Part shown: positions 1-64,000 of the stretch, piece by piece
Numbering within the stretch: position 1 is the stretch's first letter
How the letters are laid out: every line of letters begins with the position of its first letter
Origin: a virus
Taxonomy: Duplodnaviria > Caudoviricetes
Virus record (IMG/VR): IMGVR_UViG_3300011116_001007
Length of the DNA: 64,000 nucleotides
Reading direction: 5' to 3' (one strand)
Translations under genes and position numbers: made by a program
Notes under the pieces: generated by a model
The model's database searches: none
Told to the model about the DNA's origin: nothing
The model's input: the letters and a program-made list of their open reading frames with translations, nothing else

Positions 1-1155
1 TGCTTTGTTGCCTTTGGCAACAGCATTAGCATCTCGTCGAGACATATCGTCAGCAATGGCATCTGTGCTGGTAAACAATCCATCGTAACCAGCTGCTGAA
101 AAACCCGAATCATCTGTAAGCACAAACTCACCAGTTGCGGGCTTGCGACCAAACACCACAGCAGGTTTTCCATCCCATTTTACGGATCCTGTTTGAGAAT
201 TTTTATAAAACCCATCAGCTATGGCCAATGCTTGGTCTACTCCAGCACTGCCCTTGCGGAAAATATAATCTTCCAGGTGTTCGATGCCTTTGGCTTTTCC
301 GCCTACAGCAGCAGGTTCTTGTTCGTAAAGTTGGTAAGATTTTTTAGTTTCAACCAAGGCCACGTATCCGCGATTCACAATGCGATCTCTTAATCTAGCT
401 AGGAAATATGCGTCGCTTTCTTTCACAGATAAGTCGGGTTCTTGCAAGCCTTCGCCGGCTAGATAACCACGGAAGTCTTGAAGCTTGGCATCACGGTTGG
501 GATCTTTGGCCAATGCAGCATAGATTGATTCTACATTCTTTAGATTGGCACGAGTAGCACCGCGTCCCAATAGCACCTGGGCCACATAATCAGGATCCAG
601 GCCACCTTGTACCAGTTGATTTGTGGTTCTAGAGAACATGCCATTGGCGCCTACTTTGAGTCCCAGTTGTTTGGCTATGCTGCTCATTAGCACGTTTCGA
701 TTCATGCCTTTGTAAGCTGAGTCTGTGCCACCGCCATAAAAGAACTGTCCCCAATCCAAGTTGGGAAAGAACATAAAGTCAGTTTGCACAAATCCACGAT
801 TGGCATCACCGGCAATGGGTGTTTTTAAATGTACTTCCCCGCCCTTCTTGACCCATTCTCTAGGATCCAGTCCTTGGCTTTGTACAAATTGAGAAAGTAT
901 TCCAGCCAATTGTTCTTTTGAAACTTCATTCAGATCCACAGCAAGATCCAAGTCTCCTGATGAGGGGGCTTTGCCAGTTGACCCCAACCAACGCAATGGT
1001 ATGCCATCGTCATCTTTGTCGGTGCTGAAATCTAAACCAGTAACTTGTTCTATCCATTGGACCGTTGCTGGTACATCTTGTCGATTGATACGCTGTGTAA
1101 GCGGTTCTTTGTTGGGCCCTTTGAATACATTTCCGCCTTCTAATAGATATCTCAT
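1..1155 (-). CDS. Pol-beta-type nucleotidyltransferase fused to a KxDG ligase-like (DUF6267-like) domain; runs off the window start
   Basis: Hand translation from ATG at 1155 (ATGA overlap with the stop of 1152..1637) is open to base 1: MRYLLEGGNVFKG...WLGSTGKAPSSGDLDLAVD...FVQTDFMF...KAKGIEHLEDYIF...SVKWDGKPAVVFGR. Not in the ORF track, presumably because it has no stop in the window. Confidence 0.8.
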   Translation of the reverse strand, partial: MRYLLEGGNVFKGPNKEPLTQRINRQDVPATVQWIEQVTGLDFSTDKDDDGIPLRWLGSTGKAPSSGDLDLAVDLNEVSKEQLAGILSQFVQSQGLDPREWVKKGGEVHLKTPIAGDANRGFVQTDFMFFPNLDWGQFFYGGGTDSAYKGMNRNVLMSSIAKQLGLKVGANGMFSRTTNQLVQGGLDPDYVAQVLLGRGATRANLKNVESIYAALAKDPNRDAKLQDFRGYLAGEGLQEPDLSVKESDAYFLARLRDRIVNRGYVALVETKKSYQLYEQEPAAVGGKAKGIEHLEDYIFRKGSAGVDQALAIADGFYKNSQTGSVKWDGKPAVVFGRKPATGEFVLTDDSGFSAAGYDGLFTSTDAIADDMSRRDANAVAKGNKA

Positions 1156-1637
1156 GGTGCTGTGCCTGCTTGCTGTTTAGGGTGAGTTTGCATCAAAACT
1201 CCTGCTTCATATGCAGCTTGTGCAATTGTTCGAAATTCAGCCAATTCTCTAGTGTCAACTTTTTCCACATCAAGATTACCCAACTGACGTATACCAGCAT
1301 ACAATTGATTCATTATGGTATCAGCTTGATTGATGTAGACTGGAGTATAAGCGCCATTGTCATCTGTTTGAGATACCATTTGGCTTAAATTTGTAAAATC
1401 CATACCGCCAAGAAATTGATTTTGTGCCACTATTGAGTTCAATGCTTTTTTCAATGAAGTTTTAGATTGCGGACTGAGTTGTGCAGTGTCAGTGACTGCA
1501 TCTGCTGCCAGGGCCTGAGACACCTGCCGAGACCACTGCCGTTGCATGTTTTGTGCAGCCTGGTTAACCATCAATGACGTGTTTGGCGCAGCATCTTCAT
1601 TGACGCGAGATTTTCTAGTCAGTTCATGAATTTGCAT
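1152..1637 (-). CDS. hypothetical protein, possible internal head protein
   Basis: 161-aa ORF overlapping both neighbours; starts MQIHELT...VNE. Confidence 0.6.
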   Translation of the reverse strand: MQIHELTRKSRVNEDAAPNTSLMVNQAAQNMQRQWSRQVSQALAADAVTDTAQLSPQSKTSLKKALNSIVAQNQFLGGMDFTNLSQMVSQTDDNGAYTPVYINQADTIMNQLYAGIRQLGNLDVEKVDTRELAEFRTIAQAAYEAGVLMQTHPKQQAGTAP

Positions 1638-1872
1638 CTGTTTTCCTTACTGATCGAGAAAATTTACCAGCGTTTTTTGTTCGTATGGCATTGAGGAATT
1701 TTCTAGTGAGGTTTTCTGCTGTTTCAGCATCAAATTCTGATTCAATCTGCTCCAGCAATCTGATGGCATTGGCTATCACGTTGCTCGCGCGATTTTCTAT
1801 TACCAACCGACGATCTCGCTCGATGTACAGACTGTCCAGTTCTTCTAGTATGCTGCGGGTTTTCTTTTGCAT
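1624..1872 (-). CDS. hypothetical protein (82 aa)
   Basis: Preceded by CTAAATA late motif (1894-1900) and AAAGG; overlaps the downstream gene. Confidence 0.65.
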   Translation of the reverse strand: MQKKTRSILEELDSLYIERDRRLVIENRASNVIANAIRLLEQIESEFDAETAENLTRKFLNAIRTKNAGKFSRSVRKTDANS

Positions 1873-1944: not shown

Positions 1945-2949
1945 ATGACCAGCAGCATCAACCCGCAAAATATCGACGCCAACTACCCGGTTGCCGGCGT
2001 GCCCAACAACACTCAAGGATTCCGTGACAACTTCACTAATATCCAAACCAATTTTACCTACGCCAAAAACGAAATAACTGATCTGGAAAACAAAGCTGTG
2101 CTCAAGAGTGCATTGGACGGCACTACCTTGGACAACAACATGGGCGATCAATTGATCTATTCTGCGCTGATCCGAGATTTTTCTGGCAGCATTGTGCAAA
2201 ACACCGTGACGTCTGGTGCTGTTGCATTGGATTATTCGTCTGGGCATTATCAAACGGTCAGCACCACTGGTAGTATAACATTGGGATTCTCTAACTTTCC
2301 AACATCGGGTACTGTGGGCATGATGCGAGTGCAGGTCAACATTACCAATACTGCCTATACCATGACTCTTCCAGCCGCAGTCACGCTGGGGCTTACTGGC
2401 ATACAAGGCATCAGCGCCAATGTGATCACATTTGGTGCCACTGGATATTATGAATTTGGATTTGTTACCAGTGATGGCGGTACTACTATTACTGTGTTTG
2501 ATTTGAATAGACCTCTAAGTTATTTTACCAACACTGTGAATGTGGCAGCTACCACTGCCAGCACCAGCACCACAACCGGTGCATTGATTGTGGCAGGCGG
2601 CGCCGGCATTGTTGGAAATGTGTACAGTGGTAACATACGTACAGGTGGGTTGGTATCTGCAACTGGTAATATTACTGGTGGTAATGTAATCTCAAGTGGT
2701 GTGGTGTCATCTGTTGGAAATATCAGATTGCTTGCTGCAACTGCTGTACCTGCTGGCGGCACAGCAGGTGCTGGATTGTTGATGTCTAGTACTGCTAATC
2801 TTGGCGTGTTTTTTGGATCTGGTGCTCCAACATTGACGGCGGCACAAGGCAGTCTCTATTTGAGAACTGACGGGTCAAGCACCAGCACACGAATGTATGT
2901 GAACACCAGCGGCAGTACCACTTGGACTGCTGTGACCACTGTTGCTTAA
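1945..2949 (+). CDS. virion structural protein (T/G/S-rich, fibre/baseplate-like)
   Basis: 334 aa, beta-rich T/G/A composition; AATAAATA late motif at 1916-1923 and AAGGA RBS. Confidence 0.7.
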   Translation: MTSSINPQNIDANYPVAGVPNNTQGFRDNFTNIQTNFTYAKNEITDLENKAVLKSALDGTTLDNNMGDQLIYSALIRDFSGSIVQNTVTSGAVALDYSSGHYQTVSTTGSITLGFSNFPTSGTVGMMRVQVNITNTAYTMTLPAAVTLGLTGIQGISANVITFGATGYYEFGFVTSDGGTTITVFDLNRPLSYFTNTVNVAATTASTSTTTGALIVAGGAGIVGNVYSGNIRTGGLVSATGNITGGNVISSGVVSSVGNIRLLAATAVPAGGTAGAGLLMSSTANLGVFFGSGAPTLTAAQGSLYLRTDGSSTSTRMYVNTSGSTTWTAVTTVA

Positions 2950-2977: not shown

Positions 2978-3973
2978 TTAGTTTTGCATTTTGAACATCT
3001 GCTGAAACAGTTCTGGGAATACAGCACGCCAATCTGTGCCTCGTCGTTGATCAATAGAATCCAAGGTAGCAATTATTTTAGATTTTCTGTTGTCTGTATC
3101 TTTAAGAGCGAACACCCCATTTGTTAATTGTTGTCGGTGTTCTATAGGATCTGTAAATCGCGTGGTGTGGAAATTTGTTTGCAGCCACTCTTCTAACTGT
3201 TTAAGATTGTCGGAATTTAGTATGCCAACTGAGGTATTGGTAGCAAACATACAATTGTGCGGCGCATTATCAATATACCATTGCAAATTATCTGTCACCT
3301 GAGCCCACTTTGCAGGGAACCGTTGGTATTCAAATCTTTCACCAACATCATCAATACTAAAATCAAGTTGCACTAACTTAAATTGCTCCCACAAATTCAA
3401 CAACTCTTTATTTGGTAATATAGTCCCATTGGTGTTGTAATTTAAGTGTACTTGATCTTTGTGCTCAATTGCATGTAACAATTTCACATGTTCTTTACTC
3501 AGCAACGGTTCACCGCCATTGAAATGTATAAATTGTATGCTGCTCAAGTCGATGGTTTTCCAAAACTGATTGGCCGTTGATTTTTGTAATTCTATAGGTA
3601 GCCCAAGTTCTTGTTTCCACACACTACTGTTATTCGGCCCGCATATTACACAGGCCAAATTACATGTATCGCCAGTCCAGTAATCCATACGAATTAGCTC
3701 AACCTTGTTGTTGTTAAGATTGTGGTCTTTATACCAAGAGTTGCTGCCTTGCCGTCGGCTTGTTAGTCCAGCAGCTTCGGCATCTTTACAATTACTACAC
3801 GCTGTTGGTAACTGTCCAGTAGATATCTCATTGCGAAGACCAACAAGGTATTTGTTGTTTAAAAAATCAATTACTTCAGCTGAGCGTACAGGAGATATAC
3901 AACAAGGCGAAATTGCTAATGCATTTTGCTGAGCCACAATGTTTATATTTTTATAAATGTCAATGCATGTCAT
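2978..3973 (-). CDS. radical SAM enzyme with N-terminal Cys cluster (SPASM/twitch-like)
   Basis: CNLACVIC (CxxxCxxC), FNGGEPLL, YNTNGT, FSID; N-terminal CC...CSNC; TAATG coupling to the helicase. Confidence 0.9.
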   Translation of the reverse strand: MTCIDIYKNINIVAQQNALAISPCCISPVRSAEVIDFLNNKYLVGLRNEISTGQLPTACSNCKDAEAAGLTSRRQGSNSWYKDHNLNNNKVELIRMDYWTGDTCNLACVICGPNNSSVWKQELGLPIELQKSTANQFWKTIDLSSIQFIHFNGGEPLLSKEHVKLLHAIEHKDQVHLNYNTNGTILPNKELLNLWEQFKLVQLDFSIDDVGERFEYQRFPAKWAQVTDNLQWYIDNAPHNCMFATNTSVGILNSDNLKQLEEWLQTNFHTTRFTDPIEHRQQLTNGVFALKDTDNRKSKIIATLDSIDQRRGTDWRAVFPELFQQMFKMQN

Positions 3974-36752: not shown

Positions 36753-37298
36753 TCATTTGGCTGTTAGCCACGAATACGAACTTACTCTTAAAGAGTTAGC
36801 AGGTACAGGAGTCAGCATACCGTGCCATTGTAATTTTCTATACCCAGTTGAATCTGCATTGTTTATCATGAGATATCCTGCGTTTGGAACGGCTTCAACT
36901 TGATATCTCAGTGCAGCAGGATTGTTGTAATGATAAAATGCAGTGCCCAAATTGTCACCGATCCAGGTCATCTGAATAGCGCCTGGCAACTCCCCGTCAG
37001 TATGTATTCCGCAAATAAATCCTGGTTCATCAACCCACCAGCCTGTGCCCGAGTATTGCGCTACCGTACAATCCAGTGCTGTTCCAATCTTGGGCCACAG
37101 TTCTTCGCAATAGTCATTCCACTGTTGAATCCATTCTATTGCTGCATTATCAATCTTGCGACGTTTTTGATGACCTGGTTGTGGCTGCCAGGGCAGTTTG
37201 GCCCAATCAGTGTCAAGGACCTGTTGAACCAGTGATGGTGGAAACAGATCCATCACGCGGAACAAGTTTAGGTCTTGATCAACAGCAGTTATTTGCAT
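36753..37298 (-). CDS. 2OG-Fe(II) oxygenase-like protein
   Basis: HTD...WHG...RVS (HxD...H...RxS). Confidence 0.7.
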   Translation of the reverse strand: MQITAVDQDLNLFRVMDLFPPSLVQQVLDTDWAKLPWQPQPGHQKRRKIDNAAIEWIQQWNDYCEELWPKIGTALDCTVAQYSGTGWWVDEPGFICGIHTDGELPGAIQMTWIGDNLGTAFYHYNNPAALRYQVEAVPNAGYLMINNADSTGYRKLQWHGMLTPVPANSLRVSSYSWLTAK

Positions 37299-38437
37299 AA
37301 GAATGCCAACTCCGGCCATAGGCGCTGAAACTCGCCAGCTTTGTCTGGATGATATTTGGTTTCATTGTTATGCACATGACGCCAAAAGTCTGTGTCAATT
37401 TTGCTAATTTTATCCACACTCAATCTATTGTGATAAGTGGTTAGTGCATTGTCAAAAAACTGACGTTCAGCAGGTGTAGCAATGTTCATGGCATAGAATC
37501 TTTCAATCTCTGCAATTGCTGCTTGAGCAACTGCTGCACCGTGCAAGAATGGATCAAGGTATTCAGGTTGAAACAAGTTTTGCCATAGCACTGTGGTTTT
37601 AGTTTGTTCGGCAAATTGTCTTAGTTCACAAATACGTGTGGCATTGTACATGTTGTACACTGCATGTATACCACCCCAATGGCCTTGTGTGGTCATCAAG
37701 TGTTTGATCTTGGCAAGATTTTCTTTGATCAACGACCAACTGGCTCCGTGACGCACATACTCCAGTTGTTCACCAGTGTTATCAAAACTCATTGACCAGC
37801 CCACCCGGTTTCGTTTGGATAATTTTTGAAATATTTTGTTTTTGTCTAGATCCACATTCAAGTTTGTGATTAGTGTGACAATGGCATCCTGGGGTATGAC
37901 ATCTAGTAGCCGATCATTTTCTGGCAACAACAGTGGTTCTCCACCAACCAAGGCCACCTCGTGTATGTGTTCATAGTGCTGTTCAATAAAGTCGCAGACT
38001 GAATCGTAGTAGGGACGAGCACCAGATTTGAATGGAATTCCTTTGATACTGGCCCATTTTGAACTGCATGATTCGCCGCAATAATTACAACTTAGATTGC
38101 ATGTGGTGTTCCAACGTACATCTACTATCACAGGATAATGATATTGGTTGCCAGCAGTGGCATAATCAAAATTGGGATTCACGTTGTTGTGCCATTGCCG
38201 TTCAGAGTCTGCTCCAAAGCGTTCAGCTCGAACACAATTGGAACAATAGTCGTGCGGCTGACCTTGTGCCAAACTGGCACGTATTTCTGTCATGAGATTG
38301 CTGTTCAGTATCTGCTCAATGGTCTGGCTGTTCAAATTGCCCAGCATGTTGGGATTGCCGGCACAACAAGTTTTAACATTGCCTTGAGGATTGATATGCA
38401 AGCCGCGCCAGGGTGCAGCACAGTAGAAATTGGTCAT
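37289..38437 (-). CDS. radical SAM enzyme with N-terminal SPASM/twitch-like cluster
   Basis: CAAPW, CCAG, CSNC; CNLSCNYC; VGGEPLL; SFD; YVRHG; GTAAATA 4 nt before ATG. Confidence 0.9.
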   Translation of the reverse strand: MTNFYCAAPWRGLHINPQGNVKTCCAGNPNMLGNLNSQTIEQILNSNLMTEIRASLAQGQPHDYCSNCVRAERFGADSERQWHNNVNPNFDYATAGNQYHYPVIVDVRWNTTCNLSCNYCGESCSSKWASIKGIPFKSGARPYYDSVCDFIEQHYEHIHEVALVGGEPLLLPENDRLLDVIPQDAIVTLITNLNVDLDKNKIFQKLSKRNRVGWSMSFDNTGEQLEYVRHGASWSLIKENLAKIKHLMTTQGHWGGIHAVYNMYNATRICELRQFAEQTKTTVLWQNLFQPEYLDPFLHGAAVAQAAIAEIERFYAMNIATPAERQFFDNALTTYHNRLSVDKISKIDTDFWRHVHNNETKYHPDKAGEFQRLWPELAFLCK

Positions 38438-61598: not shown

Positions 61599-64000
61599 TT
61601 AGAAGAATGCAAAAAAGAGTCCGCCAGCATTGAAACTGCCTGGTGCAGCAAATATCCATCCTGTGTTGTTGCTCACATTGGTTGATGTGGTTCCCGCATA
61701 CCACTGTGCACCACCTGTTGCTGCAGAATCACGAATGCTCAAATAACCAACGCTCACTGTACCACTATTTTTGCTCAAAGTGGCCTGAGTTCCTGCGGTG
61801 CTGCTGTTGATTGTGACCAAATTGCCAGCTGTGCCTGACAGAGTAAACGCAGCGAATGTCTGTGTTGTTGAGATGGTAAATGTGATTGTGCTGGGTCTTG
61901 TGGTCGCAGTCAAATCACCAAATGAATTGTTACCTGATATGGTCAGCGCACCTGCACCACCTTGATTGAGTGTTGGATAAGTTGCGCCGCCACCGGCAAA
62001 TGTTTTTGCTGAGGCACTTGTCATGCTAATAGTAAAACCGGTAAATGTTATGCCCGGCGAAGTCACAGCAAATGGTGAAAGATTATTGGCTGTAGCTGTA
62101 CCTGTGTTTGTAACAGTAAACGCGTTAGTTGAATAATCTGTTAAAAAACTACTAAATGGTGTTGATAACAATAAAGAGGTTTGAGTTCCTGTAATGGCAC
62201 TTATGTTTGTGCCAGAACTTTGTGTTGGTTGCAAAGGTGCAGTGGGTACTGTGAAGTTACCAGTATAAACTGCTACGCCTTTGACCACACGTATGTTGGT
62301 CATGTAACCTGGGAAAAATAAAGTGCTTAAAGTGCTAGCACCGATAAGAGATGCTGTTCCGGTATAATTGGTGCTATCTGTTGTTGTAGCACCAACTTGA
62401 GTTCCATCAATGAATAATCTGTTTGACGATCCTGATCTTGACCACGCAACATGAGTCCAAGTATTAAGAGCAATTGTGCCTGCTGGAGCAATTATTTCTA
62501 CTTGAGGACTTCCTCCTATCCATAGATTTAGTGCATTATTATAACTGTAAAGCGTATATCCTCCAGTGCCGCCATACACGTTATCTGCAAAAATAACTTT
62601 GTAGGCGCCGGTGGAAGTAGCAGTTTGATAGATCCAACATTCTAAAGTTAAATCTCCGGTGCCAAAAGTAAATGCTGCATTAGTTGGTGAACTTAGACGT
62701 TGGGTAGTACCATTTAACAAAACACTACCAGTTGATCCAAAATTCCATGCTGTGGCACCTGCACCTGTTATGGTGTATGTTGTGGTTGATCCTGTTATTG
62801 ATCGAGAATATGGCCCAGCACTAGCAAAGCTACCACTGGTTATGTTGTAAGGAGCAACCACTGCTCCTGCAGTCAATGTTAATGCTCCTGTGATTGATGT
62901 TGCATCATTTGTTGTTAATGTATATGTTGGAGCGTTAACTACTAGAGCTGCAACAGTTTTACCGTTACTGGTAAGTGTACTATCAGAACGGAACGAAGGA
63001 GTCAGGCCTGTATAAGTTCCGCTGGATGATAATACTAAACCACCGTTGATATTTAAAGTGGTTGTGCCTGGATTAAACGATGTAAATCCAAAATCAAGAT
63101 TGTCGATCCACCCAGCAGTGGTCAAAGTTGCCACACTAGCACCTGAAGTAAAATACAAGTTAACTGCATTGGTTGTTGAACCACCCGATGTGCTGGCCAC
63201 ACTGAACGTTCTAGTATTAGTCATTTCAGCCACAGTGAATCCGCCATTGCCAGTGTAAGTGAATCCACCTGCGGCTGCCATGTTTAGTACCACCGTGGCA
63301 GCAGTGGTGTGTGTGAGATTAACATATCCTGCAAAAGGATTCCTAGACGAACTAGTTGCGGTGCCATTGTTGGTAACGGTGGCGTTGTATGTTGAACTAT
63401 CAGTTAAGAAACTAGTACCGTTTACTGTATTCAATAACAAGCTGGTTTGTGTACCTGTGATAGCAGATGATGGATTGCCGTTGGTGTTTGCTGATTGTGT
63501 GCTGGCCAATGTACTTGTTGGGGGAGTAAATGAACCTGCGTTTGGGGTATACAGTGCAGTACCATTTACAAATCTCAGATTGGTAATATAATTAATTGTT
63601 CTAAATTGTGCATTAATACCATAATCTTTTGTACCAATAAATGCACTGGTAGTTCCCGGACTTATTGCGCCTGTACCAATGTATGTGCTACCACTTTGAA
63701 CACCGTTGATGAAAAATGTAAGTATTGATCCTGAACGCACGACTGCAACATGTGTCCAAATATTTGCCGTAATAGGATATATACTTGCATAATAGGTTCC
63801 AGTGAAGAATCTTAATAGACCATCACCGCCAACATAAAAAGCCCATGGCGCTGAAGACTGGCCAGCCACTCTGGTATCAAGTATCCCGTTGTTACCAGCT
63901 AATATAGTTGTAGGGTTTATCCATGCTTCAATGGTAAAATCACCAGTTATGTTGAATGCAGTAGAACTTGGCAGAGTTAAGTATGAGATAGTACTTTGAT
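61599..64000 (-). CDS. long tail fibre/adhesin with LamG (ConA-like) domains; runs off the window end
   Basis: The frame stays open past 63869 to the edge (…GDFTIEAWINP…); GDLTLECWIY, WTHVA; repeated AITGTQTSLLL. Confidence 0.85.
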   Translation of the reverse strand, partial: QSTISYLTLPSSTAFNITGDFTIEAWINPTTILAGNNGILDTRVAGQSSAPWAFYVGGDGLLRFFTGTYYASIYPITANIWTHVAVVRSGSILTFFINGVQSGSTYIGTGAISPGTTSAFIGTKDYGINAQFRTINYITNLRFVNGTALYTPNAGSFTPPTSTLASTQSANTNGNPSSAITGTQTSLLLNTVNGTSFLTDSSTYNATVTNNGTATSSSRNPFAGYVNLTHTTAATVVLNMAAAGGFTYTGNGGFTVAEMTNTRTFSVASTSGGSTTNAVNLYFTSGASVATLTTAGWIDNLDFGFTSFNPGTTTLNINGGLVLSSSGTYTGLTPSFRSDSTLTSNGKTVAALVVNAPTYTLTTNDATSITGALTLTAGAVVAPYNITSGSFASAGPYSRSITGSTTTYTITGAGATAWNFGSTGSVLLNGTTQRLSSPTNAAFTFGTGDLTLECWIYQTATSTGAYKVIFADNVYGGTGGYTLYSYNNALNLWIGGSPQVEIIAPAGTIALNTWTHVAWSRSGSSNRLFIDGTQVGATTTDSTNYTGTASLIGASTLSTLFFPGYMTNIRVVKGVAVYTGNFTVPTAPLQPTQSSGTNISAITGTQTSLLLSTPFSSFLTDYSTNAFTVTNTGTATANNLSPFAVTSPGITFTGFTISMTSASAKTFAGGGATYPTLNQGGAGALTISGNNSFGDLTATTRPSTITFTISTTQTFAAFTLSGTAGNLVTINSSTAGTQATLSKNSGTVSVGYLSIRDSAATGGAQWYAGTTSTNVSNNTGWIFAAPGSFNAGGLFFAFF

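Follow-up and report, generated by a model that had tools for sequence, protein, structure and literature searches.

A predicted fusion of a minimal family X polymerase with a divergent ligase-fold module in an uncultured jumbo phage

The DNA analysed here (64,000 nucleotides of the virus record IMGVR_UViG_3300011116_001007; the window) begins inside a gene that joins two nucleotidyltransferase-like modules. On its minus strand, an open frame of 385 aa starts with an ATG at 1155-1153 and runs stopless to the window edge. The gene is complete in the parent IMG/VR record (74,250 b, CheckV completeness 21%), where it has 672 codons (its product, P0002, corresponds to L001:1501-3519). The window corresponds to record bases 1-63450 in reverse complement, with its first position at C1:63450, and covers 57% of the fusion gene, i.e. 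the 5' part; its last 550 positions (63451-64000) are off the contig or N. A preliminary description of this open frame had read it as a Pol-beta nucleotidyltransferase fused to a KxDG ligase-like domain. All the motifs on which it relied are present, and they are not chance occurrences because they are conserved across 86 homologues of the N-terminal module and 76 homologues of the C-terminal one (alignments A1 and A2, respectively, the former chosen among diverse sequences). The positions of these features are given in Table 1.

The N-terminal module of P0002, which starts with MRYLLEGGNVFK (aa 1-12), has the palm signature of Pol-beta-like enzymes, hG[GS]-x(9-13)-D-h-[DE]-h followed by a third carboxylate, in the form of G58-S59...D68-L-D70 and D126. 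These residues are nearly invariant in A1 (G58, D68 and D126 in 85 of the 86 sequences, D70 in all of them), and we take the motif to be a close parallel of the GS..RG..SSGDMD segment of Pol beta. The structure predicted from A1 (pLDDT 92.6) is informative on the family: the 46 Foldseek matches at E <= 1e-3 are without exception family X polymerases (PolX), and both the CD-NTases and the protein-modifying nucleotidyltransferases score far below them. The palm is followed by a PolX-type thumb, the nascent base-pair binding subdomain. The 8-kDa dRP-lyase and the fingers (helix-hairpin-helix) subdomains are absent from the module, which has ~10-20 residues ahead of the first aligned position. The Pol X of African swine fever virus (ASFV), an accepted member of family X, likewise lacks both. 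The Pol-beta call can thus be sharpened: as modelled, the N-module is family X polymerase-like, a mini-PolX of the ASFV type. Sequence profiles hardly see this kinship. The Pfam palm and thumb profiles (DNA_pol_B_palm/thumb) do not match P0002, and two of the 86 homologues match PF14792 weakly (best E 0.0019). Searches of PDB-chain sequences with P0002 and with profiles of A1 and A2 returned chance matches only, and Pfam and NCBIfam searches of P0002 and its homologues gave DUF6267 as the sole family match.

DUF6267 (PF19782) corresponds to the C-terminal module, which follows a helical linker and matches this family with 87.9 bits, for a cut-off of 27 (E 1.2e-24), as well as phrog_455 (E 1.3e-24). 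Neither family has a functional annotation. DUF6267 comprises thousands of phage proteins of unpublished function, and the literature search on DUF6267 and on jumbo-phage PolX-ligase fusions found nothing relevant. Three residues of the KxDG motif, K326, D328 and G329, are invariant in A2 (76/76), the W between them being present in 69 sequences, and the motif is also found in the DUF6267 proteins of cyanophage S-RSM4 and pelagiphage HTVC008M. Further down the protein, beyond the window, candidates for ligase motifs III to V appear in the expected order and in 73 to 76 of the 76 sequences: G-D417-L-x-Y, P-N-x-V-x-Y456, E640-G-x-V643 and K652-x-V-x-R656. Y456, K625, E640-G-x-V643 and R656 are invariant, and K652 is found in 75 sequences. 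In the predicted structure of the module (from A2, pLDDT 91.2), the last two of these motifs occupy neighbouring strands at the C-terminus, as do ligase motifs IV and V. Foldseek searches of PDB with this model gave weak matches, mostly to tRNA, RNA and DNA ligases, and the best structural matches were Naegleria Rnl (7.5), TbREL1 (7.3), Trl1 (7.1), T4 Rnl2 (6.5) and T4 Rnl1 (6.5).

Hence, the C-module is predicted to adopt the nucleotidyltransferase fold of ligases and capping enzymes, as had been proposed from its KxDG motif, and the lysine is as conserved as this proposal demands. It is also very divergent. A helical insert of ~120 aa (model residues 242-360) separates the region of motif III from motif IV. 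There is no C-terminal OB (oligonucleotide-binding) domain in the module, since the chain stops one helix past motif V. Profiles PF01068, PF09414, PF01653 and PF01331 match neither P0002 nor any of the 76 homologues, and hhalign produced no alignment between the DUF6267 profile and the PF01068 ligase encoded by one relative (G001). From the model, the C-module most likely belongs to the covalent lysine-nucleotidyltransferase (ligase/capping) superfamily as a divergent member, and we infer that K326 is equivalent to the adenylylated lysine of ligases.

The nearest matches of the large terminase subunit encoded in the window are those of Pseudomonas jumbo phage PA5oct (54%), Sinorhizobium phage Phosso (50%) and Agrobacterium phage Atu_ph07 (48.5%). 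Because of this, the source phage is best placed, by sequence, as an uncultured freshwater member of the PA5oct/Phosso/Atu_ph07 group of jumbo myoviruses. Near-identical DNA was found in metagenomes of several studies, of riverine, lake and freshwater origin. Homologues of P0002 are numerous, with more than 3,000 proteins at E <= 1e-3, some of them from contigs of 340-358 kb, and the matches in a library of 1.8 billion proteins fall in 1,239 clusters (50% identity). Of the 150 top cluster representatives, 51 carry the two modules fused in the N-to-C order and six in the C-to-N order; the N-module occurs unaccompanied by the C-module in 52, and the reverse holds for 37. In the cultured relatives, ligase-like genes are found close to the polymerase-like ones. 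Atu_ph07 has, directly upstream of its PolX-like gene AUZ94877, a gene for a hypothetical protein with KLDG near the start (AUZ94878, L006:4034-5008). This protein has a weak whole-model match to the Pfam RNA_ligase family PF09414 (E 0.002, sub-cut-off); its hhalign alignment with the DUF6267 profile is not significant and spans 17 columns, in which the two KxDG motifs happen to be paired. In PA5oct, the third gene upstream of the PolX-like one is EST35_0228 (446 aa, L005:2300-3640, annotated as hypothetical), which has KIDG, EGYV and KIVDK motifs and a partial match to the DUF6267 profile (hhalign 89%; Foldseek E 4e-4). A divergent ligase-like enzyme is its probable product.

The two modules also evolve as separable units. 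Between this phage and a closely related one (L081:10001-11956), DNA identity is 88-91% in the regions flanking the gene and protein identity is 85-100% in the N-module, but only 22-55% in residues ~270-600 of the C-module. In the linker, around aa 269, the nucleotide alignment is interrupted. The ligase-like module has thus been exchanged as a cassette by near-identical phages, with the breakpoint at the domain linker. In larger relatives the N-to-C fusion carries further domains (cytidylyltransferase-like, NT5C, DUF5661 and amidoligase). Two metagenomic proteins associate the N-module with other partners, i.e. a cytidylyltransferase-like domain and ART-PolyVal in P0245 (866 aa), and DUF5661 and the anti-Thoeris domain Tad3 in P0265 (1002 aa). 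Such architectures suggest delivered counter-defence proteins of the 'polyvalent' type. The cytidylyltransferase-like domain is recurrently fused or adjacent to DUF6267, including in cyanophages (P0152:620-800, L003:7173-7736, L004:8386-10176 and the S-PM2 protein A0A0M6VVW4 of BFVD, 591 aa). It weakly resembles nicotinamide mononucleotide (NMN) and nicotinic acid mononucleotide (NaMN) adenylyltransferases, far under the family cut-offs, and this partner may raise the idea of an NAD+-linked ligase. In one ESM Atlas cluster of 65 viral proteins, DUF6267 is fused to a Cu/Zn superoxide dismutase domain.

The locus is syntenic across 26 related IMG/VR contigs, with looser synteny in PA5oct and Atu_ph07. 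Neighbours of the fusion gene include both virion genes and genes of replication (DnaB-like helicase, exonuclease, NrdA). The open reading frame (ORF) just upstream, whose stop codon overlaps the start of the fusion gene, has no family match and is restricted to the closest relatives. Next comes an 82-aa ORF that lies immediately 5' of the fusion gene in most relatives and is 46% identical to EST35_0225 of PA5oct; EST35_0230, which had been considered as its homologue, is not similar to it. The window shows no enrichment in the T4 late-promoter motif TATAAATA (3 found, 1.7 expected), which does not occur upstream of the operon. Divergent from this operon is an ORF of 334 aa, rich in Gly, Thr, Ser and Ala and with the appearance of a fibre or collagen-like tail protein, that occurs only in the closest relatives (L007, L072, L080 and L081). 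Besides the terminase, the window has genes for helicases, radical-SAM-like proteins and a tail sheath of 1,132 aa. Of the two radical-SAM-like ORFs in Table 1, the more distant one matches radical SAM PHROGs, and the nearer one has Cys-rich motifs and homologues variably present among relatives.

Table 1. Features of the fusion gene and of its surroundings, in window positions (aa, residues of P0002).
Feature	Position	Strand	Remarks
Fusion gene, first 385 of 672 codons	1..1155	-	Codons 386-672 outside the window, at L001:2656-3519, including ligase motifs III-V
MRYLLE leader	1138..1155	-	L-x-E before GGNVFK, candidate T4-type protease site
N-module, aa 1-215	511..1155	-	Predicted mini family X polymerase-like palm and thumb
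GS-x-G-x5-G-D-x-D motif, GSTGKAPSSGDLD, aa 58-70	946..984	-	Putative nucleotide and metal binding (D68, D70); conserved in 85-86/86
VQTDF, aa 123-127	775..789	-	Putative third catalytic carboxylate, D126; Q124 85/86, D126 85/86
Helical linker, aa 216-285	301..510	-	Conserved helix FLARLRDRIVN (aa 251-261); two L-x-E sites, LVE (267-269) and LYE (276-278)
C-module start (DUF6267, predicted ligase fold), aa 286-385	1..300	-
HLED (H293-x-E-D), aa 293-296	268-279	-	Upstream of motif I
Motif I, SVKWDG, aa 324-329	169-186	-	K326
161-aa ORF	1152..1637	-	Upstream of the fusion gene; TGA overlaps its ATG (ATGA)
82-aa ORF	1624..1872	-	phrog_11854, 'virion structural protein'
334-aa ORF	1945-2949	+	Fibre/collagen-like in appearance
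Radical-SAM-like ORF	2978-3973	-
Radical-SAM-like ORF	37289-38437	-

What might such a protein do? We favour, at somewhat better than even confidence, a two-module enzyme processing nucleic-acid ends, specialised in repair or counter-defence, that fills and seals breaks. This reading rests on the recurrent pairing of the modules and on the precedent of PgVPolX, from Phaeocystis globosa virus 16T, a biochemically proven PolX-ligase fusion that fills and seals base-excision-repair intermediates (PMC5537341). The analysis establishes the ORF, the predicted folds, the conserved catalytic residues and the association of the modules in many genomes, whereas we infer the substrates, the order of the reactions, the cofactor and the location of the protein. 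In this reading the first module (aa 1-215), a minimal PolX, would extend a 3'-OH, at a break or within a gap, by one or a few nucleotides through two-metal catalysis with D68, D70 and D126. The conserved helical linker would connect it to the second module (aa ~286-672), where K326 would be adenylylated and the AMP transferred to a 5'-phosphate before the nick is sealed. Breaks would be filled and sealed by the two modules, with DNA a more probable substrate than RNA, and the protein might be carried in the virion. The relative G001 (261 kb), whose fusion is 74% identical to P0002, also encodes a canonical PF01068 ATP-dependent DNA ligase, so the fusion is probably a specialised rather than a replicative ligase.

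The preference for DNA comes from the standalone forms of DUF6267. In S-RSM4 (SRSM4_064, L003:5980-7182) and HTVC008M (gp127, L004:5983-7215) the gene lies among those of gp43 polymerase, UvsX, gp41 and gp61, and neither genome has a PF01068, PF01653 or PF09414 gene. Cyanomyoviruses have no recognisable homologue of the g30 ligase, and it was suggested that distant homologues might have gone unrecognised (Clokie et al. 2010, PMC2984593). From its sequence and context, DUF6267 is a candidate for this 'missing' DNA ligase. As these standalone genes sit in the replication module of genomes with no gene from those three ligase families, DNA is favoured over RNA as the substrate class of the family, though not overwhelmingly. 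The structural ranking of the C-module counts against this choice, since it leans slightly towards RNA ligases, although the tie is within 1 Z. The gene upstream of DUF6267 in S-RSM4, SRSM4_065, was considered as a hidden PolX module and discarded (hhalign probability 0.1%).

RNA repair is one rival explanation. Under this explanation the C-module would be an RNA ligase and the N-module would restore or extend RNA 3' ends cut by host nucleases acting on tRNA or mRNA. The preliminary description had given it prominence as tRNA repair. It fits the RNA ligases at the top of the structural matches and the lack of an OB domain, which RNA ligases share, as well as the weak RNA_ligase match of the Atu_ph07 neighbour. 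The canonical DNA ligase already present in G001 also speaks for it, and a language-model feature search, to be taken as a lead only, retrieved a cluster containing RNA_ligase at 0.77. Yet, the polymerase module is of the templated DNA-repair type, no kinase or phosphatase that could heal the ends is adjacent, and the cyanophage DUF6267 genes belong to a DNA replication module. We therefore do not favour tRNA repair, and regard RNA repair in general as unlikely. Less probable still is an injected effector of the polyvalent type, acting on nucleotide signals, NAD+-derived molecules or host proteins. This alternative, also raised in the preliminary description as a signalling or protein-modifying effector, draws on the association of the N-module with ART-PolyVal and Tad3, on the extension of N-to-C fusions by cytidylyltransferase-like (nearest to NMN/NaMN adenylyltransferases, at the low scores mentioned above), NT5C, DUF5661 and amidoligase domains, and on the cassette swap, which is expected of genes under conflict. 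But both modules keep full sets of polymerase and ligase catalytic residues, the structural scores of CD-NTases and protein-modifying nucleotidyltransferases are much below those of PolX, and the partners fused in polyvalent proteins are functionally so mixed that they inform on delivery more than on chemistry (PMC5512222). The Tad3 and ART-PolyVal fusions of the relatives leave this alternative a small probability.

Whether a fill-and-seal enzyme would act from the virion or from the cytoplasm is a separate matter. The leader MRYLLE, followed by two glycines, had been taken as a sign that the protein is packaged, cut and injected. This idea finds indirect support. Counting internal copies in polyproteins, the leader and the glycines after it are conserved at position 4 (L or I in 78/82), E6 (79/86) and G7 and G8 (83-84/86). 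Ahead of the unrelated C-module, too, ~20 of the 22 sequences inspected have [LIV]-x-E followed by G, A or S, and the standalone metagenomic DUF6267 proteins often have leaders of 9-20 aa ending in [LIV]-x-E (the S-RSM4 protein has none). The N-module homologue of PA5oct, EST35_0231 (hhalign 99%, E 5.5e-18), is annotated 'structural protein, ESI-MS/MS' and lies, with most neighbours likewise annotated, in a block of proteins detected by mass spectrometry (MS) that is syntenic with the fusion locus. Both PA5oct and Atu_ph07 encode a T4-type S77 (gp21-type) prohead protease. The polyproteins that combine the N-module with ART-PolyVal or Tad3 have the usual build of delivered polyvalent proteins (PMC5512222). 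Several observations weigh on the other side. The leader has 6 aa here and 4-6 aa in most standalone N-module homologues, for the 10 aa of the T4 capsid targeting sequence (PMC9026906). EST35_0231 itself begins MSGNAF, leaderless and with no upstream start, and the ligase-like protein of PA5oct carries no MS note. The segment EGGNxFK is conserved beyond the needs of a cleavage site. Neither this 21%-complete record nor four partial relatives yielded the PF03420 protease, a result that is uninformative given how partial they are. We thus put the association of the fusion protein with virions at slightly less than an even chance, and hold cleavage after E6, as judged from the motif, to be doubtful.

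The same observations feed another alternative, in which the fusion is an unpackaged cytoplasmic enzyme of late DNA maintenance which, ahead of headful packaging, would clear the concatemers of nicks and gaps, the [LI]-x-E being structural. The short or missing leaders, the conservation of EGGNxF, the protease not found in the five partial records and the replication genes flanking the locus all speak for it, and the authors of the PA5oct study list seven 'virion-unrelated enzymes' among their MS matches, for 93 virion-linked products. However, this alternative, which we deem improbable, has against it the MS annotation of EST35_0231 and its neighbours, the [LIV]-x-E repeated ahead of the C-module and the T4-type protease of the cultured relatives. 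The fill-and-seal reading can also be pushed much further. The fusion might be a break-repair kit delivered by the virion, cut at [LI]-x-E by a T4-type protease in the head and ejected with the genome, that would fill and seal nicks or breaks inflicted by the host, or join the ends of the genome, before phage genes are expressed. DUF6267 would then be a new ligase family and, in its standalone form, the replicative DNA ligase of T4-like cyanophages and pelagiphages, possibly with an NMN-adenylyltransferase-like partner. Taken as a whole, this combination seems to us unlikely.

If virion delivery were true, a repair activity would be carried in the phage head, a category of cargo that to our knowledge is undescribed so far. 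DUF6267 gains a testable assignment, as a new and very divergent branch of the ligase superfamily. A bacteriophage counterpart is now documented for the PolX-ligase fusion, so far known only from a giant algal virus. New to this analysis are the neighbours in cultured phages, the canonical ligase found alongside the fusion, the exchange of the ligase-like cassette and the fusions of polyvalent type. The standalone DUF6267 genes bear on a question raised in 2010, that of T4-like cyanophages lacking a recognisable DNA ligase (PMC2984593).

Several known systems resemble parts of this fusion. Proteins delivered from the T4 head (IPI-III, Alt) and polyvalent proteins share with it the [LI]-x-E at the N-terminus and at module boundaries, and the parallel extends to its virion-detected PA5oct homologue and its relatives fused to ART-PolyVal (PMC9026906, PMC5512222). 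The phage fusion differs from the T4 proteins by its leader of 6 aa instead of a 10-aa capsid targeting sequence, and the Pol-beta nucleotidyltransferases of polyvalent proteins form a different, minimal clade (PMC5512222). ATP-dependent RNA ligases (Naegleria Rnl, 5cot; TbREL1, 1xdn; T4 Rnl2, 2hvq; T4 Rnl1, 9do4; fungal Trl1) and DNA ligases resemble the C-module in their nucleotidyltransferase fold, where a lysine loop with KxDG comes after an N-terminal helix and, close to the C-terminus, an EG-hydrophobic strand pairs with a basic K...R one. Unlike them, the C-module has no similarity at the level of profiles, none of the known C-terminal domains nor an OB fold, a helical insert of ~120 aa before motif IV and an invariant H-x-E-D upstream of motif I. 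Bacterial LigD, which associates polymerase, phosphoesterase and ligase for non-homologous end joining, also places a gap-filling polymerase and a ligase in one protein, but there the polymerase belongs to the archaeo-eukaryotic primase type and not to PolX, and the ligase, a canonical one of PF01068, has an OB domain.

The closest parallels come from eukaryotic viruses. ASFV Pol X (174 aa, PDB 5hr9) consists, like the N-module, of palm and thumb only. It works with the ASFV ligase but is a protein separate from it, has ~15% sequence identity with the phage module and lacks the conserved N-terminal EGGNxFK segment and the helical C-terminal extension of the latter. PgVPolX has a fuller Pol-beta core with dRP/AP lyase activity, where the phage polymerase is reduced to palm and thumb, and its ligase part is homologous to the NAD+-dependent LigA type, whereas that of the phage is DUF6267, with no sequence-detectable ligase kinship. 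One fusion is from a giant algal virus and the other from a bacteriophage lineage. Yet both are viral, and in both the domain order is identical.
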